A stretch of 55,531 bases of DNA, taken from IMG/VR virus record IMGVR_UViG_3300030419_002835, positions 1 through 55,531 of that record. The stretch is one strand, 5' to 3'. The notes beneath the pieces are model-generated. The model did not search any database, was not told the DNA's origin, and saw only the letters and a program-made list of their open reading frames with translations. Made by a program: the position numbers and the translations under genes. Shown piece after piece: positions 1 to 23,000 of this stretch. Each line of letters starts with the position of its first letter. The first letter of the stretch is position 1. Source of the stretch: a virus. Lineage: Duplodnaviria; Caudoviricetes.

Positions 1-14
1 ATCTAATTAACAAC

Positions 15-43
15 AAAGGAGGGCACAATTACCCTCCTTTTTT
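15..43 (+). terminator. Rho-independent terminator
   Basis: AAAGGAGGG (15-23) / CCCTCCTTT (32-40) stem, 8-nt loop, T-run to 43. Confidence 0.8.
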
Positions 44-48
44 AGTAG

Positions 49-205
49 TTTTCCACAGAATTATGCTAAAAAGTATTAAAAAAGCCCTTTTTAAATGGCT
101 ATCAGTTGTTTATAACGTTTTCCACAATACTGTTGAAAAGGTGTTAATTAGTGTGGAAATATGCTCATTAAGTGTGGAAAACTATGTGTAATCAGTTGTG
201 GAAAA
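49..205. promoter_or_regulatory. Cluster of cyanobacterial-type DnaA boxes (oriC-like array)
   Basis: TTTTCCACA at 49-57 and 118-126 (+); TGTGGAAAA at 173-181 and 197-205 (-); one-mismatch copies TGTTGAAAA 131-139 and TGTGGAAAT 152-160. Confidence 0.72.
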
Positions 206-270
206 CTTGTTACATAGTAGACTTATTAGCCCTCTTAAATGTGCTCAGATGTTGTTATCTAAGCGAGCGT

Positions 271-299
271 AGTATAACACGAAGCGAGCGATATTACAA
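271..299 (-). promoter_or_regulatory. Leftward sigma70-type promoter with extended -10
   Basis: Minus strand reads TTGTAA (299-294), 17 nt, TATACT (276-271), with TG one base upstream of the -10. Confidence 0.55.
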
Positions 300-389
300 G
301 GGATTTGTAATATTTTGTAGTGTTATACCAAACCAGTTCAGTAACAAACTAGAACCGACAGTTTAGGTTCGATTTTGTAACATAAGGTG

Positions 390-437
390 TATAAATACTG
401 ACAATCTATTGACAACAACTCTCAGGTATTCTATGAT
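390..437 (+). promoter_or_regulatory. Tandem T4 late promoter and sigma70 promoter
   Basis: TATAAATA 390-397; TTGACA 409-414, 17 nt, TATGAT 432-437; followed by RBS GGAGGT 457-462. Confidence 0.75.
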
Positions 438-468
438 ACCTTAGTAACAACCAATCGGAGGTAATCCC

Positions 469-645
469 ATGGCCGTTTCTTACTATAACCGTACAGATAA
501 TAAGTATAGAATAACCCTGGAATTATCAGTCGAAGATGACTTTAATCCAAGGCAAATTGATTGGCGTAAAGTATTAGATTTGCACCCTAATGAGGTAGTG
601 CAATGTTATACTGAAGATCTGAGTAATCCTGTCAGTGATTATTAA
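469..645 (+). CDS. Small hypothetical protein, 58 aa (MAVSYYNRTDNKYRITLELSVEDDFNPRQIDW...), not in the ORF track
   Basis: ATG 469 to TAA 643-645; strong RBS GGAGGT and sigma70 promoter directly upstream. Confidence 0.8.
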   Translation: MAVSYYNRTDNKYRITLELSVEDDFNPRQIDWRKVLDLHPNEVVQCYTEDLSNPVSDY

Positions 646-741
646 TTGGGCCCTTTAAAGTGTCCTACTAGTGTAACACAGTCCTTGGCAAGACTTTAAA
701 CTACCAGTGTTAACAATCCAACCCTAATTTGGTGTTTTATT

Positions 742-846
742 ATGTCTAAAACCTTTGCAATCTTCCTTCTAGAAAATGCAAACAATGGCAATGACATTTT
801 GGCAGTGCTCGATGATATCTCGGAGGTGACAGATACAGTCCTATAA
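742..846 (+). CDS. Small acidic hypothetical peptide, 34 aa (MSKTFAIFLLENANNGNDILAVLDDISEVTDTVL), not in the ORF track
   Basis: ATG 742 to TAA 844-846; protein-like amphipathic composition; no clear SD sequence. Confidence 0.55.
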   Translation: MSKTFAIFLLENANNGNDILAVLDDISEVTDTVL

Positions 847-890
847 GTAACACAAACTGAATACTACAGTAAGTAACACACAGTAAAGCA

Positions 891-935
891 AATAAGGGCA
901 TCGTGGTTGACACTTTGCCCTTATTATGTTAGCCT
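891..935 (+). promoter_or_regulatory. Perfect 10-bp inverted repeat enclosing a -35 box; possible sigma70 promoter
   Basis: AATAAGGGCA 891-900 / TGCCCTTATT 916-925; TTGACA 907-912 in the loop, 17 nt, then TAGCCT 930-935 preceded by TGn. Confidence 0.4.
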
Positions 936-1070
936 CTAGTTAGTAATGCGTATGGACAGTGTTTTTGTTCTTATGTGTTCCCGTGCGGCGGCGCGATGCC
1001 CGTATATAAAAAGGTTAACTACCCTAACCTACAGAGGTGACAATTCGAGAGAGCTTTATCGATATATAAA

Positions 1071-1110
1071 AAAAATCCCGCAGAAAATTTTCACCATCTG
1101 GGGGTTTTTT
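1071..1110. terminator. Imperfect hairpin flanked by A-run and T-run (possible bidirectional terminator)
   Basis: AAAAATCCC-G-CAGA ... TCTG-GGGG-TTTTTT. Confidence 0.4.
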
Positions 1111-1149
1111 AATATATACTATTAACCAACATGAGGAGGTAAAAACGTT

Positions 1150-1383
1150 TTGGATGAAACGGTAACAACATATCACATTTATGCAAAAGATAAATGTTTA
1201 TACCATAATCTAGAGAAAGAAGATTTCGAAGAGAAATGGCAACTCTTAAATGTTATGGTTGGATTAATTAAAACGGACTATGTAGAATCAGATTTATCAT
1301 ATATCGAACTAGCGCCCAAAGTGGGTATGGGAGGCCCTGGTAGGGTTATCCACAAACAAGAATGGGAAGAACATTCATATTGA
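1150..1383 (+). CDS. Hypothetical phage protein, 77 aa (TTG start)
   Basis: ORF preceded by strong RBS GAGGAGGT (1133-1140). Confidence 0.75.
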   Translation: MDETVTTYHIYAKDKCLYHNLEKEDFEEKWQLLNVMVGLIKTDYVESDLSYIELAPKVGMGGPGRVIHKQEWEEHSY

Positions 1384-1408
1384 CACTATACATATAACAG
1401 TGTATAAT
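1380..1408 (+). promoter_or_regulatory. Perfect consensus sigma70 promoter
   Basis: TTGACA 1380-1385, 17 nt, TATAAT 1403-1408, 23 nt before the ATG at 1432. Confidence 0.9.
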
Positions 1409-1431
1409 TGAAATGAAGGTTATTAAACACT

Positions 1432-2235
1432 ATGGCAAAAGGATTTACTGTAAAAACTGTTGCACCTAAGAAGAAAGAACCTGATTGGGATATAGATGCA
1501 ATTAAAGCAAGAATGAAAGGAAAGAGTATAGTCTTTTGCCTACCTGGTAGAGGATGCTCTTTTATCTTTTTAAAGAATTTTGTACAATTATGTTTTGATA
1601 TTGTACAAAACGGAATGAGTATTCAGATAAGTCAAGACTACTCATCAATGGTTAACTTTGCAAGATGTAAGTGTTTAGGTGCTAATGTATTACGTGGGCC
1701 TAAGCAAGTACCTTGGGATGGTAAACTTAAGTATGATTATCAACTATGGATTGACTCGGATATTGTCTTTGATACACAGAAGTTCTGGCAGTTATGTGAT
1801 CTTGCGTATCCTGCAGAAGCAATTAAAGAAGATGGTACAACCGATGAAGAACTATTAAAGAGTCATGCAATTGCTGCAGGTTGGTATGCCACTGAAGATG
1901 GACGCACAACCTCTGTAGCACACTGGTTAGAAGAAGATGATTTCCGCAAGAATGGTGGAGTTATGAATCATGAAACTGTGGAATCCATTTCTAAGCGTAA
2001 GAAACCCTTTACTGTTGATTATACAGGGTTTGGTTGGGTAATGATTAAGAACGGTGTCTTTGAAAATATGGAATATCCTTGGTTTGCTCCTAAGATGCAA
2101 ATCTTTGAGTCTGGTAATGTACAAGATATGTGTGGAGAAGACGTTAGTTTCTGTTTAGATGCAAAGGATATGGGACATGAGATCTGGTGCGACCCTCGGA
2201 TCAGAGTAGGCCACGAAAAAACTCGCGTTATTTAA
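1432..2235 (+). CDS. GT-A fold (GT2-like) glycosyltransferase-like protein
   Basis: Motifs VNFARCK, LWIDSDIVF (DxD), TGFGWVMIK, GEDVSFC (catalytic-base ED) and C-terminal RVGHEK, typical of GT2-like folds. Confidence 0.75.
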   Translation: MAKGFTVKTVAPKKKEPDWDIDAIKARMKGKSIVFCLPGRGCSFIFLKNFVQLCFDIVQNGMSIQISQDYSSMVNFARCKCLGANVLRGPKQVPWDGKLKYDYQLWIDSDIVFDTQKFWQLCDLAYPAEAIKEDGTTDEELLKSHAIAAGWYATEDGRTTSVAHWLEEDDFRKNGGVMNHETVESISKRKKPFTVDYTGFGWVMIKNGVFENMEYPWFAPKMQIFESGNVQDMCGEDVSFCLDAKDMGHEIWCDPRIRVGHEKTRVI

Positions 2236-2242
2236 TTAAATT

Positions 2243-2389
2243 ATGGCAAAAATTGGTGCGGGTTTAATGAAATCCGATTATTTAGAGCAAAAACCGAAAA
2301 AAACTCGTCAAGGAGCAGGCAAACATACCAAATATGCCGCTTCTTCTCGAAATAATAAGTCAAAAAAGTACAGAGGACAAGGAAGATAA
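2243..2389 (+). CDS. Small very basic protein, 48 aa, ending KKYRGQGR; not in the ORF track
   Basis: ATG 2243 to TAA 2387-2389; fills the gap between the GT gene and the terminator; Lys/Arg rich. Confidence 0.8.
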   Translation: MAKIGAGLMKSDYLEQKPKKTRQGAGKHTKYAASSRNNKSKKYRGQGR

Positions 2390-2394
2390 CTACG

Positions 2395-2418
2395 GGAGGC
2401 AGAAATGCCTCCTTTTTT
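2395..2418 (+). terminator. Rho-independent terminator
   Basis: GGAGGCA-GAAA-TGCCTCC followed by TTTTTT. Confidence 0.9.
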
Positions 2419-2454
2419 CATGTGTAAATAGAAAAAAATCGGGAAATTAGGAAA

Positions 2455-2637
2455 ATGAATGATTTTCTAGACAACTTGGGTAATCATCAACACCAAAAAA
2501 TGCTTAGAGAAATCGCAAATGATGATATAACTCCTAAAAAAAGAGATAAAAAGGTAATAAATGACTTATATGAAGCAGTTCCAGACGAAGATGGACTGGA
2601 TTATGACATCAGCCAGGTTCCTTTAGCAGAATTTTAG
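2455..2637 (+). CDS. Hypothetical protein, 60 aa
   Basis: ORF with upstream AGGA and GTAAATA late-promoter-like site; fills the gap before g25. Confidence 0.7.
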   Translation: MNDFLDNLGNHQHQKMLREIANDDITPKKRDKKVINDLYEAVPDEDGLDYDISQVPLAEF

Positions 2638-2650
2638 TAGTAAACCCTTA

Positions 2651-2657
2651 CTAAATA
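2651..2657 (+). promoter_or_regulatory. T4-like late promoter variant before g25
   Basis: CTAAATA in the intergenic region. Confidence 0.55.
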
Positions 2658-2688
2658 ACTTAGATAATAGTATTATTTTTATAATTTA

Positions 2689-3117
2689 ATGCCTGTACAG
2701 CGAGTCAGTAAATCATTTAAAGATATTAGCGCCTCTTTTAAGGTTAATCCGATTACGGATGATCTTATTGCGCTAAAAGATGAGAATGCCATTGCTCGTT
2801 CGGTGATGAACCTTGTATTTACAAATAAAGGTGAAAGAATGTTTCAGAATGATATAGGTTCACAAGTACAAAGTATACTTTTTGAAAATCTTAATGATAT
2901 TACTGCCGATTCCGTTAAGGATGAAATTGAAAATGTCATTCAAAACTATGAACCTAGAGTGAATTTAATAGATGTTGAGGTTTTAAACTCTGAAAAGTTC
3001 AATGATCTTGCATTTAAAGCTGATCGACATGAACTCAACGTCAAGATTACATATGAAATTGTTGGAATTAATGCCCAACCACAACAGTTATCATTCGCCT
3101 TAGAGCCCACACGATAA
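2689..3117 (+). CDS. g25: Baseplate wedge subunit gp25
   Basis: GPW/gp25 motifs (AIARSVMNLVFTNKGERMF, IQNYEPRV); position directly before g6. Confidence 0.93.
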   Translation: MPVQRVSKSFKDISASFKVNPITDDLIALKDENAIARSVMNLVFTNKGERMFQNDIGSQVQSILFENLNDITADSVKDEIENVIQNYEPRVNLIDVEVLNSEKFNDLAFKADRHELNVKITYEIVGINAQPQQLSFALEPTR

Positions 3118-5114
3118 TGCCACTAGTAAATTTCGCCAATCTGGATTTCGATCAGATAAAAACTTCTATTAAGGATTATCTTCGATCTAATTCGAATTTC
3201 ACTGACTATGATTTCGAAGGATCTAACCTATCCAGTATTGTAGATGTACTTGCGTATAACACGTATATTACTTCATACAATGCTAATATGGTATCTAATG
3301 AAGTTTTTATTGATAGTGCCACACTTAGAGAGAATGTTGTTTCTTTAGCACGAAACATTGGATATACTCCAATGTCAAGAAAATCTTCTCGTGCACTAAT
3401 TTCCTTTAGTATTGATACATCGGGTTATGCTACACAACCGGAAACCATTACTCTTAATAAAGGATTAGTTGCTACAAGTGCACGTTTTGGTAATACCAGT
3501 TATATGTTTAGTATTTTAAATGATATAACGGTTCCTGTATTAGATAATAAAGCCTATTTTGATAATATTACCGTTTTTGAAGGAACTTATACTACAAATA
3601 ACTTTACTATTGACTCTTATACACCAAATCAGAGATTTATTCTTCCAAATACGGGTATTGATATATCAACAATTCGTGTTATTGTAAAACCAACAAAAAA
3701 TAGTTCAGTTAAAACGACATATACAAAGGCAGACAGTCTTTTTGACGTTACATCTGACTCAACTGTGTTTTTTGTACAAGAAATTGAAGATGAAAGGCAT
3801 GAAATTATCTTTGGCGACGGTATTTTCGGCAAAAAACTAGATTCTCCCAATTATATTGAAGCATCTTACTTAATATCGAGTGGTGCTGAAGGAAATAATG
3901 TTCAAAAATTCGAATTTACAGGTAAATTAACCTCATCTAGAGAAGCTAGTGCTCTTACAGGTGGTATTTCTGTTATTACTACAAATGAACAGTCTTTTGC
4001 TGGTGCAGAAATTGAAAGTGTTGAATCTATTAAAAAATATGCAACGCGAATTTATGCTTCACAGAACAGAGCTGTAACTGCAAGAGATTATGAAACCATT
4101 GTACCGACTTTATATCCAGAAACTGAATCAGTTGCTGTTTTTGGTGGAGAAGAATTAGATCCTCCACAATTTGGTAAGGTTTACATTAGTGTTAAACCTG
4201 TGAATGGTGCATATCTCTCCAGTATGATTAAAGATAATATTAAGAGAGATATTAAACAGTATGCGGTTGCAGGAATAGTCCCTGAAATCATTGATTTAAA
4301 ATATCTTTATATTGAACCTGATATAAATGTATATTACAATACTAATTTAGCTAGATCAGCGAGTTCTATTACAAGTATTGTATCAACTAACGTTGAAAGA
4401 TATGCAGATTCTACAGAATTGAATAAATTTGGTGCAAGATTCAAATATAGTGAATTTTTACAGATAATTGATGAGAGTAATGCAGCGATTACATCCAATA
4501 TTACTACAATTGTGATGAGAAGGGATTTAAGAACTGTTTTAAATAGTTTTGCTGAGTATGAAATTTGTTTTGGTAATAGATTCCATGTTAAAAACCATGG
4601 ACATTCTCCAAAATATGGAGTTGGATACAATATTAAATCTTCCGGATTTACCGTAAGTGGAATTCCTGGTACTGTATATCTTGCTGATATGCCATATGGT
4701 GATTTACAAGAGGGAACTGTTAATTTAATAAGATTAAGTTCTCCAACTGATCCTATTATTGTCAAAAGAGATGTAGGTGAAATAGATTATATTAAAGGAG
4801 AGGTTAAACTTCATCCGATAAATATTACTTCAACAGTCCTTAATAAAGGGTTCCCTGTTATTGAAGTGTCAGCCGTTCCTTACTCTAATGACGTGATTGG
4901 ATTACAGGATCTTTATTTGCAACTAGATATTAATAACACAACCATTGCTTCCATTTCTGATCGGATATCTTCTGGTAATGATATTTCAGGATCAAATTAT
5001 ATTGTATCTTCAAGTTATGCAAACGGTGGATTGGTTCGTGGGACTCCCCAAATAGTTACATCAGGATCAACAGCATCCACAACACCTATATTAGCAACCA
5101 CTTCGTCCTATTAA
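3117..5114 (+). CDS. g6: Baseplate wedge subunit gp6
   Basis: LDFDQIK...FTDYDFEGSNLS...LAYNT, IIFGDGIFGK, SQNRAVTARDY motifs; 665 aa. Confidence 0.95.
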   Translation: MPLVNFANLDFDQIKTSIKDYLRSNSNFTDYDFEGSNLSSIVDVLAYNTYITSYNANMVSNEVFIDSATLRENVVSLARNIGYTPMSRKSSRALISFSIDTSGYATQPETITLNKGLVATSARFGNTSYMFSILNDITVPVLDNKAYFDNITVFEGTYTTNNFTIDSYTPNQRFILPNTGIDISTIRVIVKPTKNSSVKTTYTKADSLFDVTSDSTVFFVQEIEDERHEIIFGDGIFGKKLDSPNYIEASYLISSGAEGNNVQKFEFTGKLTSSREASALTGGISVITTNEQSFAGAEIESVESIKKYATRIYASQNRAVTARDYETIVPTLYPETESVAVFGGEELDPPQFGKVYISVKPVNGAYLSSMIKDNIKRDIKQYAVAGIVPEIIDLKYLYIEPDINVYYNTNLARSASSITSIVSTNVERYADSTELNKFGARFKYSEFLQIIDESNAAITSNITTIVMRRDLRTVLNSFAEYEICFGNRFHVKNHGHSPKYGVGYNIKSSGFTVSGIPGTVYLADMPYGDLQEGTVNLIRLSSPTDPIIVKRDVGEIDYIKGEVKLHPINITSTVLNKGFPVIEVSAVPYSNDVIGLQDLYLQLDINNTTIASISDRISSGNDISGSNYIVSSSYANGGLVRGTPQIVTSGSTASTTPILATTSSY

Positions 5115-5120
5115 TCGCAG

Positions 5121-8100
5121 ATGATATCTACCGATCTTCAGAGAGTACAGACTCAAGATATAGTTGAGAATCAACTTCCTGCATTTGTTAGGGAAGATTT
5201 TCCTTTATTGCCAGATTTCTTGCGACAGTATTATATTTCGCAAGAATATCCAGGAGCTGCTAATGATTTAATACAAAATATTGATCAATATTTAAAATTA
5301 GAATCTTTAACAACTAATACAGAGTCTACAAAACTTTCAGGTGATCTAAGTATACTTGATACAACAGTTAATGTTTCCTTTGCATCTACGGAAAGTATTT
5401 ACGGTACTTATCAATTTCCTGATAAGTATGGTTTGATTCAAATTGATGATGAAATTATTCTTTATAAGTCAAAAACTGATACTTCATTTGTTGATTGTCA
5501 AAGAGGATTTAGTGGTGTAACATCCTATGATAATATTGATGCAAAAGATCAATTAACTTTTAAAGAATCTTCGGTTGCTAAACATACAAATGGAGCTAAG
5601 ATAGTTAATCTTAGTGCTTTATTATTCCAAGAATTTTTAACTAAAATTAAATATCAATTTACTCCTGGATTCGAAGATAGGGAGTTAGATAGTGAATTAG
5701 ATAAAAGACTGTTTATATCAAGAGCAAACGATTTTTATACATCGAAGGGAACTGATGATTCCTTTAAAACTCTCTTTGGTGCTCTTTATGGAGAGAGTGT
5801 AGATGTTATTAAACCTAAAGAATTTCTTTTTAGGCCTTCAGATGCACAATACAGAGTAGTAAAAGATATAGTTGTTGAAGCCATATCAGGTGATCCTAGT
5901 CAATTATTAAATCAAACTCTTTTTCAGGATGCAAATAGTGCTTATGGAATTCCTAAAGCATATGCACCGATTACAGATGTTGAAAGGGTACTTTATGGTG
6001 GAAAGGAATTTTATAAATTAAGTGTCGATTTTAACTATCAATTAGATATTCCTCTTGAGGGAAGTATTTTTGGGGAATTCTCTGTTCACCCTAATACTAA
6101 AATTATTAATAATGTTTCTGCTGGTGCTACTGTTATTTCTGTAGATTCAACTGTAGGATTCCCTGCGGAGGGTGAATTAATCACTCATTTTAATGCTGGT
6201 ATAAACACTGTTGGAATTTTAACATATACATCTAAATCTGTAAACCAATTCTTTGGAGTTCAGGGTGTAGATACTGCTATTGATAATTTAAGAGATATCA
6301 GATTAAATACGAATGCATATGGTTATGTTGGTATTGGAACAACTACTAAAGTTGAAGTCAGAATAGGTTCTGTTTTATCTACCCCAATTATTGATGAAGA
6401 AACTTATTATTATTCTGAAGATGATACTATAAAAATTAAATCACTTGGTATTACTACAGCAAGTCCTAGAACATATAGTTGGTTATATAATCTTGCAACA
6501 TCATTTTCTATTAAATCTTTAACTTTAATTGATGCTTCTGATTATACTTATGAGGTTGAGACTTATACTGAGAATGATATTGGAGTAGGAGATAATATTG
6601 CAGTTGTTAATACAGCCGGTGTAGAATATACTTCTAGTGTTACTGGTGTGATTAATCCCACTACATTTAGTATTGTAGGACAGGGTGTTATTGACGGAGT
6701 ACCTGGAACAGTAAAAAGAAAATTATTAAAACCAGAAGTAAGTGCTGTTTTATCAAAATATAATTACATTGAATCTAATACTGCAAATGTTCAAAACTCT
6801 TATGTAAATTTTGATCATGATGTTTTAATTGCAGCACCTTCTCTTCCATATTATGCTGATCGGAAATTAAATTTCTATGATAGAGAACTTACCTTAAATG
6901 GCTCTTATGAAGGTGAAACCTTTACTATTACTGATAGAGATGAGCATGGATATTATACAGGAGATCCTGTTTATTATAACAATAATGTAACTGAGACTAC
7001 TGTAGACAATGTAGTTGTTAAAACTATTAGTCAGTTTGATAATATGGATCCAGGAATCTTCTATATGAAGAGGATTAATGGAACTCAATTTAAATTAGCA
7101 AGCAGTCAGGCAAATCTTTATAATGAAGAATATATTTCTGTCTCTGGTATTGTAACATCTAATACGATAATACCATCAGATTTCCATAATAAGATATTAC
7201 AGCACCAAAATTTAATAAGACAATTTAAAGAGCCTAGTAAGAAGAGTGGTATCTATGAGACAGAACCTGGTAAGACAGGTATGTTAATTAATGGTGTAGA
7301 AATACTTAATTATAAGTCTCAAGAAATAGTTTATTCTGGAACTTTAACCTCAATTGATATTGCTAGTGAAGGATCTGATTATGATGTTATTAATCCACCA
7401 ATTCTTTCAATTCAAGATGCAACTGGAGTTGGTGCAACTGGAGTTGTAGCTGTAAAGGGTGTTTTTGAAGCAATTGATATTATTGATCCAGGATTTGATT
7501 ATGTCTCAAAACCTATTTTAACAATTAGTGGGGGAAATGGTATTAATGCCACTGCCACTGTTAATACAAAATATATTGATCATTCAGTATCTTTTAATGC
7601 AACTGCTGCATCGGCAAGAGTAAACATTGATAATGATACTATTGGTTTTTCTACCTATCATAAATTTAGAAATGCTGAAAAAGTAATCTATAAAACAGAT
7701 GCACAACGTGCAGTTACTGGACTGACTACAGATGCCATTTATTATGTCAATGTAGCTACTGCCTCTACAATTAAATTATATCCAACTGAAGCAGATTTAA
7801 TAGTTGGAATTAATACTGTAGATTTAACTGGATATGGTGAAGGTGTTCATAGAATAGAAGCATTTAATCAGAAACAAATTTTATCCAATATTGTAGTTGA
7901 TAATGGTGGAGAGAATTATGAAAATAAACAGAGATCATGTTCTCCTGCTGGAATTAACACTGCATCGGATCAAGTAAACATCGTTAATCATGATTATAAT
8001 TCAAGAGATATAATAAAGTATTCTAATGATTCAACTGCAGTTAGTGGATTAACTGATGATACCTCATATATTGTTACCCGTGTAGATGCAAATAATTTTA

Positions 8101-11100
8101 GATTATCAAGTGTAGGTGTAGGTACTACAGCAAAATATCATTATTTTGATACTAAGCAGTATATCGATTTTGAAGCTAGTGGTGCTGGCAGTCATGTTTT
8201 CAATTATGAACCTATTACTTTAAGTCTTGTCGGTGAAATAGGAGTAACAACATTTAGTGGACAAGATTTTAATGCAGTTCTTCAACCAATTGTAAGAGGA
8301 TCTATTAAGAGTGTTCAGATTACGGATAATGGTTCAGGTTATGGTTCAAACATTATTAATTACAATAGACAACCACAAGTTCAAGTTCTCAGTGGAGAAG
8401 ATGCAGAACTTTTACCAATTGTAAGTAATGGAAGTCTTCAAGAAGTTTTAATAACTAAAGGTGGTAGTGGTTATAATTCTCCACCAACTTTAACAGTAAA
8501 TGGTGAAGGAAAGTATGCAAAATTAGTTCCAGTTATTTCAGGTGGACAGATTATAAAAGTTATAATTGACAGTCCTGGAGTAGGTTTTGCTACTGAAGGT
8601 ACATCTGTAGCTGTGGAAGAAAGTGGTGCGGATGTTAACTTTAAGTCAAATCTCGATACTTGGACAGTAAACTTATTTGAAAAATATAAGGATATTATTT
8701 CTGCTGATGATGGAGTTTTAGACAATCCTATTAATAGTGAATATGGTATTGAGTATACTCATTTATTTGCTCCTAGAAGTTTAAGAGAATCTGTTTATGG
8801 CAAAACTCAGGATAATGATATTAAATATGGAACATTTGATCTTCAAAAAATCAGTGAACAGGAAGTAAATTCTGGTTATCACTCTCCTATTTTGGGTTGG
8901 GCATATGATGGTAATCCAATTTATGGCCCTTATGGATTCTCTACTCCTACTGGTGGTACTATAAAACAAATGCTTACTGGTTATGAACCAGTAACTAAAG
9001 CTAATCGTCCTTCATTAAGTGCGTTCTCTCAAGGATTTTTTGTTGAAGATTTTAAATTTACAGATTGTGGAACTCTTGATAGGCATAATGGACGTTTCTG
9101 TATAACACCAGATTATCCTACGGGAACTTATGCATATTTTGCAACTATAAATCCTGGATCAGTTGAGGAAGTTCAACCCTTCAAGAACTATAGAGCACCA
9201 GTTTTCCCTTATCTAATTGGTAATACTTATAAGTCAGAACCTAATGAGTTTAATTTTAATAAGGATTCTACTCAAGCATCATATGATTTAAATGAATCAA
9301 ATTATTTTAGAAATACTACTCCATATTTTCTTACGGATAAAGATGCCCAATATAATTATGTGTTCCAACCAAATAAGGCAAAAGAGCAAACTATTAATAT
9401 TTCCGCTGTTACAACAGGTAGTATTGATTCGGTTGGTATTATAACTGGGGGAAGTGGTTATAGAGTAAATGATGCTGTTGAATTTGAAAGAGGTGTATCC
9501 AACACAAAATCAAAAATAGCAAAAGTTCTTGGTAAAGTAGTAAAGTATGTTAGTGTTGCTTCTTCTATTGCAAATGGATTAGAAATAATGCCAGTAGATG
9601 CAAGAGGATCTTATGTTGCATTTGCAGCTACTCCACATAATTTCCAAAATTTGGATCTTGTTTCTTTAGCTGGATTTAATACTTCTGTTAACCATCTTGA
9701 TAATTCCTTTAATATTGGAATTAGTACTGGTGAATATATTCTTAATGTGGGTGTTGGTACAACAGGTGTAACTGGAATTGTTACTTACTTTAATGTTGGT
9801 GGTAGATTAACAGATGATTTACTCTCTGTTAGAGAGAATGATATCTTTGCAATTGGTGATGAGAGAGTAAAAGTTCTTGCAGTTGATAATTTAAATTCTA
9901 GAATAAGAGTATTGAGAACACAGGATGGAACAGTATCTGCTGCTCATACAGCATCTACTGTACTTTATGAAGATTCTCGTAAATTTACATTTGATTCTGA
10001 ACCTGAAAATGATGTAACCTTCGAAATTAATAAGCAAATCTATTTCAATCCTGTAGAATCTTTAGCTTTGGGAGCAAGTTCTGGCGTAGGTATTGGAACT
10101 ACTATTTTCTTCTCTAATCCTGGAGCAGGAATTACTCAAGTCTTTATTGAAACTCAATCAATTTATCTTCCAAAGCATGGATTGAAGACTGGAGATACTC
10201 TTACTTATCAAGTTAATGATGGAGATTCTATAGGAGTAACTACAACTGGATCTAGTGCGGTTAATTTCTACTTACCTAATAATCAAACAGTATATGCTGC
10301 AAAACTTTCTGATGATTTAATTGGTATTGCAACTGTTAAAATTGGTTTAGGAGCAACAGGAACCTATATTGGTGTTGCTGATACTACTGCTAATGATGGG
10401 TTATTATATTTCTCTGGAATAGGAACAGGACTTTATCACAGCTTTAAGACAGTAAAAACAAATGTTGTCACTGCAGAAGCCAGTAAGAATACGGTAACAG
10501 TTTCTTGTGGATCAACACACGGTCTTAGTTTAAGAGATAATATTGATATCTCTATAGATGCGGGAATAACAACTAGTATTGTTGTAAAATATAATGATTA
10601 TAATAGAAGAATTGTTTTTGATCCTCTTTCATTTACTGCATCTAATGTTGATACTACTGAAAATACCATTACTGTTAGTGATCATGGATTGGTTAATGGT
10701 GATAAAGTAATTCATACGGCAACAACTCCTTCTGGTGGATTATCAGATCAGAAGATTTATTACATTTATAGATTTAGTAAGGATAAAGTAAAATTAACCC
10801 TTACAGATTATCAAACTACAGTTTTCACTCCCAAGTTTGTTGATATTACTTCTGCATCGGCTGGAACTCTTTCTCCAATTAACCCTAAGGTAGATGTTTA
10901 TAAAAACGATACAGTAGAATTTAATCTTTCTGACAGTTCTTTATCTTCTTTACATAATTCTACCCTATATTCTGCTTTCTCTTTAGATTTGTATAGTGAT
11001 TCTAATTTGACTGGTCTTGGACAGAGTTCTTTCCAGAGTCAATTTGATTCTTCCTTTAAAAATGATTATTTTGAAGTTTCTAAGGTTGGAAGAGTTGGTA

Positions 11101-14100
11101 TTGATACAAATGCGAAATTAGTCTTAAGAGTTACAGATCAAATTCCTGAAAACTTATATTATAAGTTTACTCCTGCTAACCCTAATAAAATTAGCGCACC
11201 TAAAGAAGAGATTTATATTGATACTGAGGTTCCTAATTATAACCAAGTTAATGTTCAATCCAGTAAATACTCTGGTTCTTTCAGTGTGGTGGGATTTGGA
11301 ACTACTTCTTTTGAATATAATTTAAAGGAGACTCCAGAAAGAGCAGAATATGATCGAACAACTGCAAGGATGGAGTATGAGACAAGTTCTACTTCTGCGT
11401 ATGGCGGCATCTCTGATATTTTAATAACTTATAGTGGCACTGGATATGAAAAGGTTGTTGGAATTTCTACTATTGTATCTACTTTAGGTGCGGGAGCTAT
11501 TCTAGAACCTTCTAGTGATACGATTGGAAAGATTACAACTGTAGAGATTGAAGATATTGGTTTTGATTGGCCAACAGATAATACTTTAAGGCCTGTTGCT
11601 AATCTACCAGAAATCTTAAGAGTAGATTCTTTAACCTCATTTAGGTTTATTGGAATTAGTTCAGTAGGTAAGGATTATACTATTGCACCTAAACTTGTTG
11701 TTCTAGATGGACTTACTGGTAAGCAAGTAACTGATGTTGATATTTTCTATAATATTGGAGATACCAGTGTAACTATTAGAAACAATACTTATGGTATTTC
11801 GAATGTAACTCCTACTATTATACCTACGAGTAATCCCAATGGAGTTGGTATTGCCACTGTTACTTATGATCTCTCAACTAATACGGTTGCTGTTGGATTA
11901 GACACTGCATTTAGTGATAGTGTTCCATTTGCTGTGGGTGATAAGGTTCTAATTGAGAATTTAAGTGTTGGTGTTGGAACAACTGGTAAAGGTTATAATT
12001 CTGAAAATTATGGATATAATAGATTTACTTTAACCGATGTTAATATTCCTCTGGGAGGAGCAATTGGTTTTGTTACTTATAGTCTTGATGGTTTTGTAGA
12101 TAGCGTTGGAGGTGAAATACCTGGTAATGTAGATTACCTCAATTCTGCTGGCCGAATGATAGCAGAAAAAGATTTCCCACAATTTGATATTCAACTTAAG
12201 AAGAATAATTACATTATAGGGGAAACTGTCACTGCTGGATCTAAAACTGGAATTGTAGAGAGTTGGAATAATGAAATCGAACTTCTTAAAACTTCTACAA
12301 TAAATGAATTAAATATTGGCGATGTCATTGTTGGAAAAACCTCTAGGACTCAAAGTAGAGTTAGAGAAAAAATCGATTTTAACTCTTATATTAAACTCGG
12401 CCCAACTTCGATAGTTAAGAAAGGTTGGAGAAAGGATACTGGATTCTTAAATTATGATACAGAGAGATTGCCTGATAATAATTACTACCAGAATTTCTCT
12501 TATTCACTGAAATCTAAAGTTTCAATGGATGAATGGAATGATGCTGTTAGTTCTTTAAATCATACATCAGGATTCTTGAAATTTAGTGATTTAACTATAG
12601 AGTCTGAAGATCCAAATTTTGGAGGCCCTTACTCAGATTATAGTGGAGCAACGGTTGATGTAGTTACCGATTTTGCTAATGCAATGGATCTTAATTCTTA
12701 TAGTAATTTTGATCTTGCTACAGAAAATGGATTAGCAATAGGAACAAAAACTATTTCGAATAACATATACTTCAATTCTAAAGTTCTTACTGATTATTAT
12801 GAATCTTTTGGTAATAGAGTTTTAGTAATTGATGATGTAAGCACACAATTCAGCAGTGAACCACGAGCTGAGAAGTTCTCTGTTGTTGATAAATTTGATG
12901 TTAAGCAAAGATCTAAAAAATATTTCACTTTTGTAAGAGATAAGAGATATACTGATCAAAGATCAGTTTCATTGGTTACTATTATTCATGATAATTTCCT
13001 GGGATATGCCAATAATTATGCTAAGTTACCAACAGTATATGATCAAGGATATTTTGATTTCAATATTGCTGGTTCCGAAGGACAATTATTATATTATCCA
13101 TCAAAATATGAAGACAATAATTACAATATAAGTGCTATTTCTTTTGATATTGATGATTCTATAAGTGGAGTTGGTACTACTGCTATTGGCCAGATTTGTA
13201 ATATTGAATCTACACAAACAGATATTGCTGCAGGAACTGCTACAACAATTGTTTCTATAGCATCTACTTACAGATCAAGTAAGATTATTGTGGAGATAGA
13301 TGGTGATAATGGTGAATTAGAATTTAATGAATTAAGTATTATTCATAATGACACTATTGCAGAAATTCTAGAATATGGACAAATGACAACTACTCCTACT
13401 CTCTGGGATAGTGGAGTAGGTTTAGGAACATTTGGTGTAGCGATGGCTGATGATCATTTGAATGTGAACTTTACTCCTGCGATAACAGGGGTTGCTATGA
13501 CAGCCAATACCGTAAGAGTTTCAATGTCTAGTAGTGAATCTACTGGTATTGGATCATTTACATTAGGTGGTGCAAGAGAAAATATTGGTTTATTAGAATC
13601 TCATTATACATCCATTGCATCTACTACAAGCCCTGGAATTCATACGGTGGCATCTTATTTCCATACCGGAGATACTGATTATGATCACTCTGGTGCATAT
13701 TTTATTGTAAGTATTGAAGATACTACAAATATGAAGTTCCAGATGACGGAAGTGGTTGTTGTTAATGATTCGAGTAATGCTTATATAACACAATATGGAG
13801 ATATCTTCACTGATGGTGATTCTCTATCTGGTATTGGAACTATAGGTGCTCTTTGGACAAGTGATCATACTTATCTTCAATATACTCCACCTGCAAGTGT
13901 TAATACTGCAGTTCGTGTATTTGGAATGGCTATTCAGTTAGTTGCTGTTGATAATACTGAGAATAGTGAGATTAATCTTAATAATGCTTCTATAACTGCA
14001 GGTTATGGATTCTATTATGGAACAGGAACTGCGGTTAAGAGAGAATTTGCTCTAAAACATAGAGAAAAGGATATCTTTAAGAGATCAGTTGATGCTTCAG

Positions 14101-17100
14101 ATACTGATGTTGTTGATTTATCTTTAGATACTGTTACAATTCCAGAGCATTTCTTTGTTAGTGGTGAAGAACTTATCTATTCTTATGACACTACTCCTAT
14201 TGGAATAGGAACTACTGATGGTTTTGTTGGTGTGGGAACTACTGATCTTCTTCCTCGTAGTGTTTTTGCAATCAAGGTTGATGATAAAACCTTGAAGTTT
14301 GCTACTACTGCTGAGAATGCTTTAAAAACCACTCCCGTTCCTATAGACATTACTGCCGTAGGTGTTGGAACTAGTCATTCATTTACTTCAACTCAACAAA
14401 ATACCAAGTGTCTTATTACTATTGATAATTATTGTCAATCACCAGTTGTTGCAACTTCTGTTACTACAGGAATTGGTAAAAGTCTTAACTTAACAGATGA
14501 TGGAGTTATATTCCAAGGTATTACATCTTTCTTTGGTGGAGATCTGGTTAAGGTTGATGATGAAATAATGAAGATTAGTACCGTTGGGTATGGATTGACG
14601 AATAGGATTTTAGTTAATCGTCCTTGGATGGGAACTGCTCTTGGTGTACACTCAGAGAATGCAATTGTAACTAAGGTAGAGGGTGATTATAATATTGTTG
14701 ATAATACACTTCATTTGATTGAGGCTCCTCAAGGACCCACTCCTATTAGTAGTACAACAAATCCTCCTGAATCGGTTGATTGGGTTGGTATCACCACCTT
14801 CTCTACTTTCCAGGGAAGAAGCTTTATGAGATCCGGTGCAGAGAATAGTGCAAAACAACCTTATGCAGAGAACTATGTCTTTGATGATATTGCTGGTAAG
14901 TTTGATGCTGTTACTAAGAGATTTACATTAACATCTGATCAAGAAAATATTAGTGGATTCTCTACTAATAATGCAGCAATATTAGTAAATGGTATTTTCC
15001 AAGGTCCAACTGGTACTTTGGATACGGATCAGGATTATTCTTTAGGTGAGAATGCAGGTATTACAAGTATCTACTTTACTGGAACTGCAACATCGGTTTC
15101 ATATGATCCTAATAATGCAAACATTCCTGTTGGTGGAATAGTTATATCGGTTGGATCTACGAAGGGATATGGATATCAACCTTTAGTTGCTGCAGGTGGT
15201 ACAGCATTAGTTTCTACTTCAGGAACTATTACATCAATTGCTATTGGAAATACTGGTTCTGGATATCGTGTTGGAGTACAAACCGTTCATGTTGGGATTC
15301 AAACTTATACTACTGGTACTGTAGTTCCTATGGGAATTGGTACTGCCCAGATAACCAATGGACATATTACTGGAGTTGCTGTTACTAATCTTTCTGTAAT
15401 TTACAAACCACGGGAAATATGGGATGTCGGTTATACCTCCACAACTGGTGTTACTACTGTAACTACTGCTACTCCTCATGGATTACTTACTGGTGATGAT
15501 GTTATCATAACTGGAATTGCATTTACTTGTGATTATGCTCCCATAGTAGGGATTCAGAGTGCAGATTATAATAATACCGCTGGTATTATGACAGTCACGA
15601 CGAGTTCTAATCATGGACTGTCAGCATTTAGTACTACAACTCCAGCTAACAGTAGTCATGTAGTTCTAGCAGGATTGGCAATGTCTTGTGCTATAGATGC
15701 TGGAGTTTCTACTCACATCTATCCAAGAAATAGGGATCCATTCTATGATACTTCAATTCCTATTGATTCTGTCGATGCCACAACTATTACTGTTGGAGTG
15801 GGTACTGCTAAGACATTACAGCAATACGCACATACATTTGTAAGCGCTGCTACTAGTGCTGTTATTGCAGGTGGTGAATATTCACACACCTTTAGATATG
15901 CTGTGGGTGGTGGAGTTACTGCAAACACTGGAATAGGATATACCCCCTCAGACGCTACATATGATCCTGTAACGGGTGATATGGTACTAACTATGGTAGG
16001 ACATGGACTTACCACTGGAAACACCGTATCCTTCGCTACAAGCGCCTTATACTTCGCATGTAGTATGGATGGGTATGGTAGTGATCATGGATATCCTCGT
16101 ACCACAGATCCTGTTGCTGGTATAGGAACTACTATTTCTTCAGTCACTACAGATACTATTACAGTTAATGTAGGAACTACTCCTGTTTCTTTCTTTGATG
16201 TAAGTGCTGCAACTTATACACAGTCTACAGGTGCTTTACAATTAACTATCGGATCTCATAGTTTAACTGCTGGAACCAGTATTAAGATATTAAAGGAATC
16301 TTTATCATTCAAGTGTTCTGCAGATAGTTATTCAAGTGTTCACAAATATCCTCGTGCAGGGGATCCTACTTATGGTGGTGTAGCTGTTGTGGGTGTTGCT
16401 AGTGCAACTCAATTCTCAGTAAATGTAGGTACTTCAACTGTTCCAACTGTTTATCAATCTGGTGGAACAATGCAAGCAGCGATTATTGCACCTAGAGCCC
16501 AGAATGCTTCTGCTAATAAGCAAGATGGTGCTTGGGATGGAACTGGAAGTATCGAAGTATTGGATAGTAAGAGATTCACATTTAATGCTGGTGTATCTAC
16601 TAGAACTCACTTCTACAATAGAGGTGGAAAGGTTAATAAGAACTTAAAGGTTGTATTTGATTCACCTCTTTCTTATTCTGATATTCCTTTAATCTATAGT
16701 GAAGACTCACCTGGTGTTGGGGTTGGTACAACTGCAACTGTTAATATTGTAGTTGGACAAGGATCAAGTATAATTGATTTCGAAATTCAAAATCAAGGAT
16801 ATGGTTATGGTGCAAATCAAATTTTAACTGTTCCTATTGGTGGGGCAACAGGAATTCCTACTGATCCTTCACTTACATTTGATGAGTTCCAACTTTCAAT
16901 TGAAAAAGTTGCATCTGATTCATTTGCTGGATGGCATTTCGGACAAGTTGAAATGCTAGATCTTATTCAGGATCAGTTTGATGGAATTAAGAAACAATTC
17001 CTCCTTAAACTTAATGGCTCATCTGTGACAATTAGAGCAGCGGCTGGATCTGCTATCGATGTTCAATCAACTCTTTTAGTATTCATTAATGATATTCTAC

Positions 17101-20068: not shown

Positions 20069-23000
20069 ATGTCTCAGGAAACTAATCTAAACGTAGCGCC
20101 ATACTTTGACGATTTTGACGCAAGTAATGACTACTATAAGGTTTTATTTAAACCTGGATATCCTGTTCAGGCTAGAGAACTTACCGGTCTTCAATCGATT
20201 TTGCAAAATCAGATTGAACGATTTGGACAACACTTTTTTAAAGAAGGTGCAAAGGTAATTCCTGGTAATACTGCATATAGTAATACGTATGATTGTGTAC
20301 AGTTAGAGAATCGTTACTTAGGAATCGCGTTATCTGATTATGCGAGTCAACTTGTTGGCGCAAAGATTACTGGATTAACTTCAGGTGTAACGGCAGTTGT
20401 AAATAAGATTATTCTAGCAGACGAATCGGATAGAGGCAATACCACATTATATGTAAGTTATTTGGGATCCAATAGCAGTGATAATACAACTACTACATTT
20501 GCTAATGGTGAACTTATTGCAGCTAATTTAGATATTAAGAGTGCGAATACTATTATTGCATCTGGGGAAGGTTTTGCAACGACTATTGCAACTAATGCAA
20601 CGGCTACTGGATCTGCATTTTCTATAACTAATGGAATCTACTTTGCAAAAGGAACGTTTTTATCTGTAGATGATGAAACTATTCTTCTTGATCAATACGG
20701 AAGTACTCCTACTTATAGGATTGGACTTTTAATCACTGAAAAAATTATTAATGCTGATTTAGATCCTAGTTTAAATGATAATTCTAAAGGATTTAATAAT
20801 TATGCTGCACCAGGAGCAGATAGACTTAAGATAACAACATCTCTCCATAAAAAGGAAATAACTGATTTTGATGATAATAATTTCATTGAACTTGCTACTG
20901 TAACAAGTGGTGTTCTAAGATCTAAGAGAAGAACGACAGATTATAATATTATAGCCGATGAGTTAGCAAGAAGAACATATGCAGAATCTGGAGATTATTA
21001 TGTAAAAGCTTTTGGATTATCTGTAAAAGAATCCTTAAACAATAATGATGGTAATAATGGAGTATTTAATGCTGATCAATTAACCTATGGTGGTGCTACT
21101 CCTTCTAAGGATTTAGCACTTTATAAGTTATCTCCTGGTAAAGCATTTGTAAAGGGTTATGAAATTGAAACCATTGCTCCTACTTTTTTAGATGTTCAGA
21201 AACCAAGAACTACTAAACTTTTAACATCTCAACAAATTAATTATGATGTTGGCGCAACTATAAAATTAAATAGAGTTTATGGAGCTCCTACTATTGGAGT
21301 TGGTAATACTTATATTGTAAGTTTGCGTGATTCTAGAGCAGGTGCTTCTCAAACTATTTTTTCTGGAAAGGAAATTGGACTTGCTAGAGTCTATGATTTT
21401 AAATTAGACTCTGGATCTTATGATTCAGCAACTCCTGCAACTAATGAGTGGGATATTTCTTTATATGATGCTCAAACATTTACTGAAATTACAGTAAATG
21501 AGCCAATGACTTTATCTGTACCTACTCATATTAAAGGAAAGTATAGTGGTGCAAGTGCTTATATCAGATCATCAGTTGCTGCTGGTACTGCATTAACAGT
21601 TTATGATGTTTCTGGAACTTTTGTTCAAAATGAGAATTTTGTTATTAATGGTATAGAGGATCCAAGAGTTGCCATTGCTGTAACTAGTTTTGGTATGGGT
21701 GATGTTCAATCTATTTTTGGTAATAATAATCTTGACGATGGTAATGTTGGAGCCGCTGCTACTTTCTCAGCAGATTGTATTCCAAGTACTATTTCTAATA
21801 TTGGTGTTGCAACAATTAGTAATTATGTATGGAGTACTGCTCATGGAAGTATTAGTACAGTAAGAAGTACAAGTGCTAATTTCCCTGGACAAATAGCCGT
21901 AGGAAATCTTCTCCAATTCAGTGGAACTGATTCAGAAGATCCTGTACTCGCGAAGGTTGTAAGTTTGGGATCAACTCATGCAGTTATTACTGGCGTTACA
22001 ACTGTAGGTGGTGTAGCAAGCGGTTCTTTACCTGCAGCATTATTCCAGGTTGCTGACTTAAATGTAGTTGCAACTAATCTTTCGGATTCGGAAGATAATG
22101 CATTCTATACTCCCTTCCCTAAAGCTAATATTTCTAATGTAGATTTAACTGATGCTTCTTTAACTATTAGAAAAGCTTATACTGTAACTATAACTGATGG
22201 GCAATTATCATCTTCTGTTTCTTCTGGTAGTAATCAAACATTCTTACCATTTACTCCTGAAAGATATTTACTGATTGGAAGTGATGGAGCAACAGAACCA
22301 TTGACAGAAGATCAGGTTAAATTAACAGGTGGTTCTAGTACCCTTCAGATTTATAATTTGGGTGCAGATGATGCTGATGCAACTCTTATTACTACAGTTA
22401 AAAAATTAAAGCCTAAAGCAAAAAATAAGATAAAGGATAGAGTAAATACTGTCGTTATTGATAAGTCTATTAATAGTTCTTCTGGTATTGGTTCTACTAC
22501 CTTGAATGATGGATTAACATATGGAACTTATCCTTATGGAACAAGAGTACAAGATGAAGATATTTGTTTAAATGTTGCTGATATTATAGAAGTTCATGGA
22601 ATCTATGAATCAATTGATACTAGTGATCCATCTGCTCCCACTGTAACTTTGGGTTCAATTTCTGGCCCAACAGGTAAAACATCAGATTTGATAATAGGAG
22701 AGAAATTTGTTGGCCAAAGTTCTGGTGCTTCTGGTATTGTTTTAGCACGAGTAAATGATTCTAAGATTGAATTTGTTGTTAAGAATCAAACTAACTTCAT
22801 AGAAGGAGAAGTATTGGTATTTGAAGAATCAAATATTCAGGCTCTTGTAACTACAATAACAGTTGTTAGTGTAGATGCATCCTTTAAGTATACATTTACA
22901 ACAGGACAAAATTCTTCTTTCTATAACTATGGAACTTTAATCAGAAAATCTGATATTACTGCTCCAAATAGAAAGTTGAAAGCATACTTTATGAATGGAT

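Follow-up and report, generated by a model that had tools for sequence, protein, structure and literature searches.

What a lytic T4-like phage of marine cyanobacteria might gain from a dense cluster of recognition sites for the replication initiator of its host is the question raised by one end of the IMG/VR viral record IMGVR_UViG_3300030419_002835. The window analysed here is this entire record, which is linear, 55,531 bases long and equivalent to approximately 26% of the genome according to CheckV. The cluster, at positions 49 to 205, consists of six copies of the cyanobacterial DnaA box TTTTCCACA, two of them with one mismatch, and T4-type phages are generally assumed to begin replicating independently of any host initiator. 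The reading that we tentatively favour, and that we rate at a little short of even, is that the six sites could form a docking array for host DnaA which modulates an early leftward transcript, possibly as part of an R-loop origin. The element itself is real and conserved, and it is apparently undescribed in print.

The box array and its probable ligand

The six sites were located as follows.

49 to 57, plus strand: DnaA box, perfect TTTTCCACA by exact match, the distal site
118 to 126, plus strand: DnaA box, perfect by exact match, the core site, followed by AT
131 to 139, minus strand: one-mismatch box TTTTCAACA, forming a dyad with the box at 118 across a 4-base gap
152 to 160, minus strand: one-mismatch box ATTTCCACA, the identical variant being found at the same place in three related loci (L038, L048 and L055)
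173 to 181, minus strand: DnaA box, perfect by exact match
197 to 205, minus strand: DnaA box, perfect by exact match

The perfect box occurred four times in the whole window, where 1.08 copies are expected, and all four copies lay inside 49-205. Together with the two one-mismatch copies, both on the minus strand, six boxes are packed into 157 bases, at the places and in the orientations that had been claimed when the cluster was first pointed out (perfect at 49 and 118 on the plus strand and at 173 and 197 on the minus strand, one-mismatch at 131 and 152). The starts of the reverse boxes (131, 152, 173 and 197) were likewise confirmed to be 21, 21 and 24 bases apart. In 1000 windows simulated with a first-order Markov model, the maximum found within 160 bases was two perfect copies (3 of the 1000 windows) and four copies with at most one mismatch (1 of the 1000), compared to four and six observed, respectively, and none of the simulated windows matched the observed box density.

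The 9-mer is the published cyanobacterial DnaA box as given in the accessible part of PMC4674748, so this identification in the original prediction was correct. Because the closest cultured relatives of the phage, by DNA and by protein, are Synechococcus and Prochlorococcus myophages (Kyanoviridae), we infer that its host is a marine picocyanobacterium. The boxes were compared with a host set of 30 dnaN loci from genomes in the family of a marine Synechococcus genome. In these picocyanobacterial genomes, as many as six copies, each with no more than one mismatch, occur in the region from -390 to -140 before dnaN, and their places recur across most of the 27 loci that have the upstream region. 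At most one perfect box was found in 29 of the 30 host regions, and the array in the window holds more perfect boxes than any of those 29. DnaA itself is encoded in 30 of the 31 genomes of that family (above the NCBIfam cut-off).

For comparison with other phages, 80 related loci were collected via a neighbouring open reading frame (ORF) of 267 amino acids. The core box at 118-126 was invariant across seven aligned relatives (pairwise identity 1.00), and the core pattern TTTTCCACAAT-NN-TGTKGAAAA, which includes this box, was found in 33 IMG/VR stretches, most of them with 3-9 boxes nearby. The 118/131 dyad recurs in relatives, and its second arm is perfect in some of them (L066 and L068). A box homologous to 49-57 is present in L013, L038, L048, L055 and L058, where it pairs with a reverse box approximately 15 bases further on; the window is without that partner. 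The box at 173-181 is missing in shorter variants found in other runs among the four marine sequencing runs that were compared as DNA contigs, in which 161-261 is swapped for approximately 31-34 other letters.

The spacing of the sites proceeds in steps of approximately one helical turn, same-orientation sites being 12 or 21-22 bases apart and inverted sites 13-14, 24-25 or 34-35 bases apart. Phage arrays use single sites, both dyad polarities and both strands; this freedom of orientation and dyad type is compatible with an asymmetric site that binds a monomer. The variants present in phage arrays (TTATCCACA, TTTTCAACA and ATTTCCACA) match the known degeneracy of the DnaA box. Judging by these sites, DnaA is quite probably the ligand in this phage.

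The unit around the boxes

The boxes lie inside a leftward unit, the parts of which are listed here from its promoter onwards, followed by the rightward features next to it.

299 to 271, minus strand: sigma70-type promoter by hexamer reading, TTGTAA-17-TATACT, with TG before the second hexamer
229 to 264, minus strand: start of the predicted leftward transcript, its first ~35 bases conserved and common to SynMITS9220M01 and many relatives
73 to 98, no strand assigned: AT-rich motif with a pair of A6/T5 tracts of the ATTAAAAA type, homologous to S-SM2 sequence
15 to 43, no strand assigned: hairpin with flanking A/T runs, the stem at 15-40 found by a minus-strand scan and the T-run at 38-43 read on the plus strand
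409 to 437, plus strand: sigma70-type promoter of the small early genes, TTGACA-17-TATGAT, 11 of 12 consensus matches
469 onwards, plus strand: ORF of 58 amino acids, from the ORF list
2689 to 3117, plus strand: g25 (gp25), by Pfam match

The order of parts, promoter, boxes, AT-rich motif and terminator, defines by comparison of relatives a conserved, non-coding leftward unit. Its promoter was absent from the original account of the locus. In 49 distinct related cassettes the first hexamer was TTGACA in 37 and the spacer was 17 bases long in 45, the spacer sequence itself being variable; the second hexamer was forced to TANNNT by the search pattern and its conservation was left uncounted. The boxes occupy +25 to +240 of the unit, and in 37 of 48 cassettes none was found within 300 bases upstream of the promoter. 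The rightward promoter at 409-437 stands back to back with the leftward one, so that the two diverge. Of 30 cassettes, 22 carried a T5AAT/T6AA motif between +95 and +209 of the leftward unit, compared to 1 of 40 upstream controls, and there was a strict hairpin with T-run at +157 to +242 in 10 of 30 relatives compared to 2 of 40 upstream controls. In the window the hairpin and T-run precede the boxes, and the array does follow directly on a terminator as had been proposed; from its structure, the hairpin at 15-43 reads as the terminator of the upstream rightward gene and is likely also the end of the leftward unit. The motif at 73-98 is a candidate unwinding or protein-binding element, and the stretch 58-100 around it, noted from the start as AT-rich, has 75-78% A+T compared to approximately 65% across the window.

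No minus-strand ORF of 20 or more amino acids was found in window 1-270, and ATG frames within the first 250 nucleotides of the leftward unit did not exceed 33 amino acids in 29 of 30 relatives. The leftward transcript would be approximately 220-250 nucleotides long and is predicted to be untranslated. The placement of the boxes in non-coding DNA, asserted in the original prediction, holds with one formal exception: a frame open at its 5' end, 3-191 on the plus strand with its stop at 189-191, runs through the hairpin of the terminator and through all boxes but one. It was read as non-coding because its relatives show stops (for example L048, before the hairpin region) and indels that are not multiples of three, and it looks like the read-through tail of an upstream gene that lost its stop. 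In cultured S-SM2 (NC_015279.1, 57997-58101), a 34-amino-acid 'hypothetical protein', SSM2_086, is annotated over the DnaA boxes and the AT-rich motif, and is probably not a gene. Covariation of a 5' hairpin in the leftward RNA was considered and dropped, the window stem being lost in most relatives.

The summed contig depth of 236-376 was in the thousands in the four marine runs, and this stretch must therefore be common to many co-occurring phages. The leftward unit opens with a module of approximately 25 bases (TTAAATGTGCTCAG-type, window 229-262), which is tandemly duplicated two to three times in the promoter-to-box interval of several relatives (L043, L021, L026, L059 and L063).

Conservation of the array at the same place, the check that had been named with the original prediction, was found both in independent assemblies and in a cultured phage. 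Two or more perfect boxes stand upstream of the 267-amino-acid ORF in 13 of the 80 related loci; six of the loci (L013, L038, L048, L055, L058 and L075) match the layout of the window site by site, and shorter versions occur in L066 (within a 106.8-kb contig), L068 and L072. Cultured S-SM2 has the same order of parts, namely terminator, AT-rich motif, core boxes (one of them with a single mismatch) and promoter block. In seven aligned relatives, pairwise identity was 0.81 in box columns and 0.63 in non-box columns.

The array is also a single-copy feature. Clusters per contig were counted in 40 related contigs, a cluster being a stretch of at most 600 bases, and in contigs with three or more perfect boxes all of them, or all but one, fell in a single stretch (G001, 4 of 4; G024, 5 of 5; G025, 4 of 4; G026, 3 of 3; G029, 3 of 3; G032, 4 of 4; G011, 5 of 6). 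Within 64 bases lay 4 of the 4 boxes of the 106.8-kb contig and 4 of the 6 boxes of a 204.8-kb relative. One contig of 284,050 bases rated 100% complete (G073) has two different clusters, at 29317-29434 and 239066-239129, 209.7 kb apart; it probably holds more than one genome length, or it may hold two related phages.

Other arrangements were seen among the relatives. In L026 (1419-1493), L031 (424-497) and L083 (4502-4575), perfect palindromic pairs made of a reverse box, 4 bases and a forward box are present in duplicate, separated by approximately 52 bases, immediately behind the stop codon of the homologue of the 58-amino-acid ORF, and would form 9-bp hairpins as RNA. In L058 (720-755) a perfect box lies within the 17-base spacer of a consensus sigma70 promoter (TTGACA...TATAAT), an operator-like position. 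Cassettes without boxes carry alternative dyads in L039 (~3020-3130), L043 (~2740-2850), L081 (~3780-3850) and L063 (~1300-1360), and further dyads of this kind are TTTTCTACT / AGTAGAAAA and TTGATAA..TTATCAA. A third cassette type, found in L019 and L025 at 40-400 bases before the homologue of the 58-amino-acid ORF (L070 is similar), has four repeats of approximately 32-35 bases, approximately 100 bases apart, which replace the boxes and are iteron-like.

Phased box pairs were found in at least 116 IMG/VR stretches, including contigs unlike cyanomyophages. Among the matches listed were arrays of 7-9 boxes in other cyanomyophage contigs, larger arrays between back-to-back promoters in such contigs (L306 and L358), and three stretches (L342, L312 and L320) with 5-7 perfect boxes which are unlike the cyanomyophage cassettes, one of them with 52% G+C, and which are perhaps origins of other phages or of plasmid-like elements. 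Host DnaA boxes in viral DNA extend beyond this cassette.

The rest of the window is that of a T4-like phage, as originally described. Its plus strand encodes a T4-type structural and recombination set by Pfam (gp25, gp6, gp8, neck protein, gp15, gp17 terminase, gp18 sheath, gp20 portal, gp21 prohead protease, scaffold, gp23, UvsY and UvsW). Two giant ORFs lie 3' of gp6 and gp8 on the same strand, at 5121-18458 (4445 amino acids) and 20069-27607 (2512 amino acids), the first of which occupies the place of gp7. No tRNA gene was found in the 55.5-kb window, and a BLAST search with positions 1-1400 gave no match to 1-223 among cultured phages. The DNA at 976-1087 is conserved in many cultured cyanomyophages (77-94% identity by BLAST), has a contig depth above 1000 in the four marine runs and overlaps weak ORFs at 946-1125 (plus strand) and 1024-1176 (minus strand); it could encode a conserved RNA or act in regulation, and Rfam gave no match to it.

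Possible roles of the array

A modulator acting in cis fits the array best because the position, order and phase of the boxes between promoter and terminator are constant, and the array is single-copy and dispensable. Under this proposal, host DnaA would bind the helically phased array within the conserved early unit, and once bound it would make the leftward transcript pause over the AT-rich motif, block it there or stabilise it. DnaA at the array would not open the DNA as it does at oriC. Its occupancy, which in cyanobacteria follows ATP and photosynthetic electron flow, would tie an early decision of the phage to the replication and energy state of the host, and this decision would most plausibly be a T4-style start of replication from a promoter and an unwinding element (an R-loop), or alternatively early transcription from the divergent promoters, in keeping with the larger arrays between back-to-back promoters in other contigs and with the box in the L058 promoter spacer. 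DnaA binding, the leftward transcript and any role in replication are what we infer from the sequence.

For the cassette as such, a role as an R-loop replication start is the most attractive option because the cassette has the anatomy of a T4 origin, a promoter with a downstream unwinding element; we regard it as possible, with the greater weight on its being something else. The leftward promoter at 299-271 is aimed into a non-coding AT-rich element, the motif of which recurs in 22 of 30 cassettes, with no ORF on that strand. In Synechococcus elongatus, binding of DnaA to oriC falls by two thirds in the dark and is nearly gone with 3-(3,4-dichlorophenyl)-1,1-dimethylurea (DCMU) while the level of DnaA stays constant, according to the part of PMC6478999 that is accessible. 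The array could in this way report the photosynthetic state of the host to the phage. It is a more speculative, and rather unlikely, extension that DnaA occupancy serves as a sensor gating a leftward primer or R-loop transcript, such that phage replication is licensed only in an energised, replication-competent host and the coupling is gained or lost as a module.

Several observations weigh against the docking array that we favour. The helicase, loader and primase of T4-type phages are encoded by the phages themselves, and no link between any of these and DnaA is known to us. The excess conservation of box columns is modest, since 245 of 5000 random blocks (~5%) equal it. Although AT-rich, the stretch 58-100 is no outlier in duplex instability, lying at the 93rd-96th percentile of the window by nearest-neighbour calculation, and many late-gene intergenic tracts are less stable. 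Cumulative GC skew, a check suggested with the original prediction, shows no turn at the cluster (44.8 kb) in the 204.8-kb relative, where it is monotonic; this test is weak, nearly all genes being on one strand, and the cumulative GC/AT skew of the window was likewise monotonic, and positive throughout. In an unbiased set of cassettes, made up of the loci found by neighbouring gene and of cultured genomes with at least 300 nucleotides downstream of the promoter (the window, with 263 nucleotides, being left out), 14 of 29 comparable cassettes had two or more boxes and 15 had none or one. Among 18 cultured genomes scanned whole, only three (S-SM2, P-TIM68 and DSL-LC02) showed at least two perfect boxes inside a 100-base span; the S-SCSM1 cassette has one perfect and one near box. 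The main caution comes from box-less L039 and L043, in which other dyads stand at homologous places and have changed in concert (TTCTCAATA / TATTGAGAA / TGTTGAGAA); these are either weak DnaA sites or mark a switch to another factor, and the bound factor may thus not be DnaA in every case. Box-less relatives retain the terminator, the AT-rich motif and the promoter, and by this comparison the boxes are an optional module added to a conserved cassette.

The alternative that survives best, although we consider it unlikely, gives the array no role in cis and makes it a DnaA sink, a datA-like decoy in which the boxes of the multiplying phage soak up host DnaA, with the result that re-initiation of the host chromosome is stopped or DnaA-controlled host genes are released. 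Perfect consensus boxes, more of them than at a typical host origin, would suit a decoy, as would the missing unwinding module and the arrays of 7-9 boxes among the listed matches in other cyanomyophage contigs; one 1.9-Mb host genome has 24 perfect boxes, which tens of phage copies with 4-6 boxes each would be expected to outnumber. However, nothing about a pure sink requires its boxes to keep the same position, order and phase within a promoter-to-terminator unit, and the array is absent from about half of the relatives. Cyanomyophages degrade or shut off host DNA anyway, and the benefit of a sink is thus doubtful. Some sink effect would follow from mass action, but a sink alone would leave the fixed geometry unexplained.

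It is slightly less probable that another protein, encoded by the phage or another host factor, binds the 9-mers and that their match to the DnaA box is convergent or coincidental. The concerted shift to other dyads in L039, L043, L081 and L063 would be accounted for in this way, as would the third cassette type with its four ~35-base repeats (L019, L025 and L070), and the fixed 4-base gap of the dyad resembles a dimer operator. Against this, the match to the host DnaA consensus is exact at nine of nine positions, in 4-9 copies per phage and in many lineages; single sites and both dyad polarities are in use; and the variants tolerated are those that DnaA tolerates. No neighbouring ORF family was found to track the boxes (best 4 of 17 loci with compared to 0 of 15 without, p = 0.10 uncorrected, 47 families; the comparison has low power and covers the flanks only). 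Two families were weakly tied to box-less loci (0 of 17 compared to 6 of 15), which was not significant after correction for the 47 families, and no DNA-binding family was found by Pfam among the 36 ORFs of the window.

A true DnaA-dependent origin, in which DnaA opens the AT-rich stretch and recruits the helicase as at oriC, P1 oriR or iteron plasmids, is improbable. In favour of such an origin, a conserved AT-rich element is flanked by boxes of either orientation, the array occurs once per genome and between genes, and its helical phasing is that of DnaA oligomer arrays. In the accessible part of PMC8287927, a DnaA-trio array belongs to the basal unwinding system beside an AT-rich tract, after one or two boxes and a short spacer. 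In the corresponding host module, a pair of abutting boxes is separated by 4 bases from a CTACNAC run. A box followed by CTACNAC within 45 bases was found in 16 of 30 host dnaN loci and in none of 132 phage loci including the window; the trio pattern is our own strict regular-expression version of the published one. In the host loci (L208-L237) the arrangement is very regular, the abutting boxes, 4 bases, a CTACTACTAC run and an AT-rich tract standing approximately 140-170 bases before dnaN. Because the unwinding module is lacking in all 132 phage loci, opening by DnaA as at oriC is unlikely. A TAGTAG at 215-220 was considered as a DnaA-trio and rejected, as its side of the box is opposite to that in the host module and it is not conserved in relatives.

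Further points tell against a DnaA-dependent origin. With none or one box in 15 of 29 cassettes, the boxes are optional, which argues against an obligatory origin of this kind; the AT-rich part is not exceptionally unstable, and no skew turn was seen. Neither dnaA nor dnaN neighbours the array, its neighbours being phage early genes and g25. No Rep, DnaA-C or helix-turn-helix family was found among the 36 ORFs of the window, nor was a second iteron set, the window being about a quarter of the genome (~26%). The accessible text of a T4 review (Kreuzer and Brister 2010, PMC3016281) contains no mention of DnaA. From its layout, the array is better described as a double-strand docking array than as an unwinding module. 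Of the earlier interpretation, the motif, the density, the conservation and the lack of a chimera therefore stood, and the oriC-like label did not, with no homology to oriC, no unwinding module and no exceptional instability of the AT-rich part behind it.

It is very improbable that the repeats act as RNA, within the leftward transcript, for example because UUUUCCACA pairs with UGUGGAAAA or because an RNA-binding protein recognises them. The predicted 257-nucleotide RNA folds better than each of 200 shuffles (z = -4.06), mostly because boxes pair with one another and because of the terminator, and near the promoter the orientation of boxes is biased (57 same-strand compared to 26 opposite). 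Yet inverted repeats fold well by construction, boxes also occur outside the transcript and on both strands (in the promoter spacer of L058 and between the divergent promoters of L306 and L358), and no relevant Rfam family was found within window 1-3000.

Finally, an assembly artefact, in which the first ~250 bases would be host origin DNA joined to a phage contig, can be dismissed: the array does begin 48 bases from the contig end and many related contigs end near it, but they break here because the high-depth stretch 236-376 is common to many phages, the join recurs in independent assemblies and in cultured S-SM2, contigs of two other runs span 1-260 and 10-128 and extend past the start of the window (the run with most of the words of this stretch may be the source sample of the window and is not independent support), and similarity to the host is box-sized only (best 17 bases, E = 0.45, by BLAST of window 1-300 against 32 host loci). 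The chimeric join with host oriC that the original prediction had allowed for is ruled out by the spanning contigs, the relatives and the lack of host homology.

Comparison with known systems

No published DnaA boxes or mapped origin in T4-like cyanophages were found in the full-text literature searched, which lacks most subscription journals. Cyanomyophages are among the most abundant ocean viruses, and with their replication origins unmapped in the literature found, the cassette offers a concrete single-copy candidate for a replication start. If the docking array works as proposed, it would connect a lytic phage, directly and at the molecular level, with the replication and energy state of its host, which bears on the light dependence of cyanophage replication. 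Cultured carriers of the element are S-SM2, DSL-LC02, S-SCSM1 and P-TIM68, and the tiny S-SM2 'hypothetical protein' annotated over the boxes is a consequence for annotation.

With cyanobacterial oriC the array has in common the 9-mer itself, in several copies and both orientations, and a nearby AT-rich tract, as far as the accessible parts of PMC4674748 and PMC8287927 describe it. It differs in never having the abutting boxes, 4-base spacer and CTAC-type trio of the host (0 of 132 compared to 16 of 30), in lacking dnaA and dnaN next to it as well as any homology outside the boxes, and in having more perfect boxes than most host origins.

According to the accessible part of PMC3016281, T4 origins combine a promoter with an unwinding element; at oriE the promoter is an early one, and short repeats are used as well. 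As described there, oriF (uvsY), oriG (gene 34) and oriE sit where the direction of transcription changes, and the phage cassette likewise has back-to-back promoters. In contrast, the T4 repeats are 12-nucleotide iterons with no link to DnaA known from that part of the source (PMC3016281), whereas the repeats of the cassette are the 9-mer of the host initiator. The likeness to a T4 origin is one of anatomy alone, with no sequence homology claimed, and origin activity of the cassette is putative.

A different likeness is to the datA and DARS loci of Escherichia coli and the DnaA-box clusters of Bacillus subtilis, which are chromosomal and titrate or recycle DnaA, datA requiring integration host factor (IHF). 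Like datA and DARS, the array is a cluster of high-affinity boxes off the origin that would act by DnaA occupancy and not by unwinding. Those loci, however, act on the cell's own initiation, whereas the array is on a viral genome.

Host DnaA boxes are also used in replication or early-control regions by P1 oriR, the lambda pR/ori region and iteron plasmids. Unlike the lytic T4-like phage considered here, which has a replisome of its own, these elements are plasmids or temperate phages that bring a Rep or O protein and iterons. The array is thus known in kind, as a set of host-initiator sites on a mobile element, and it is the carrier that is unexpected.

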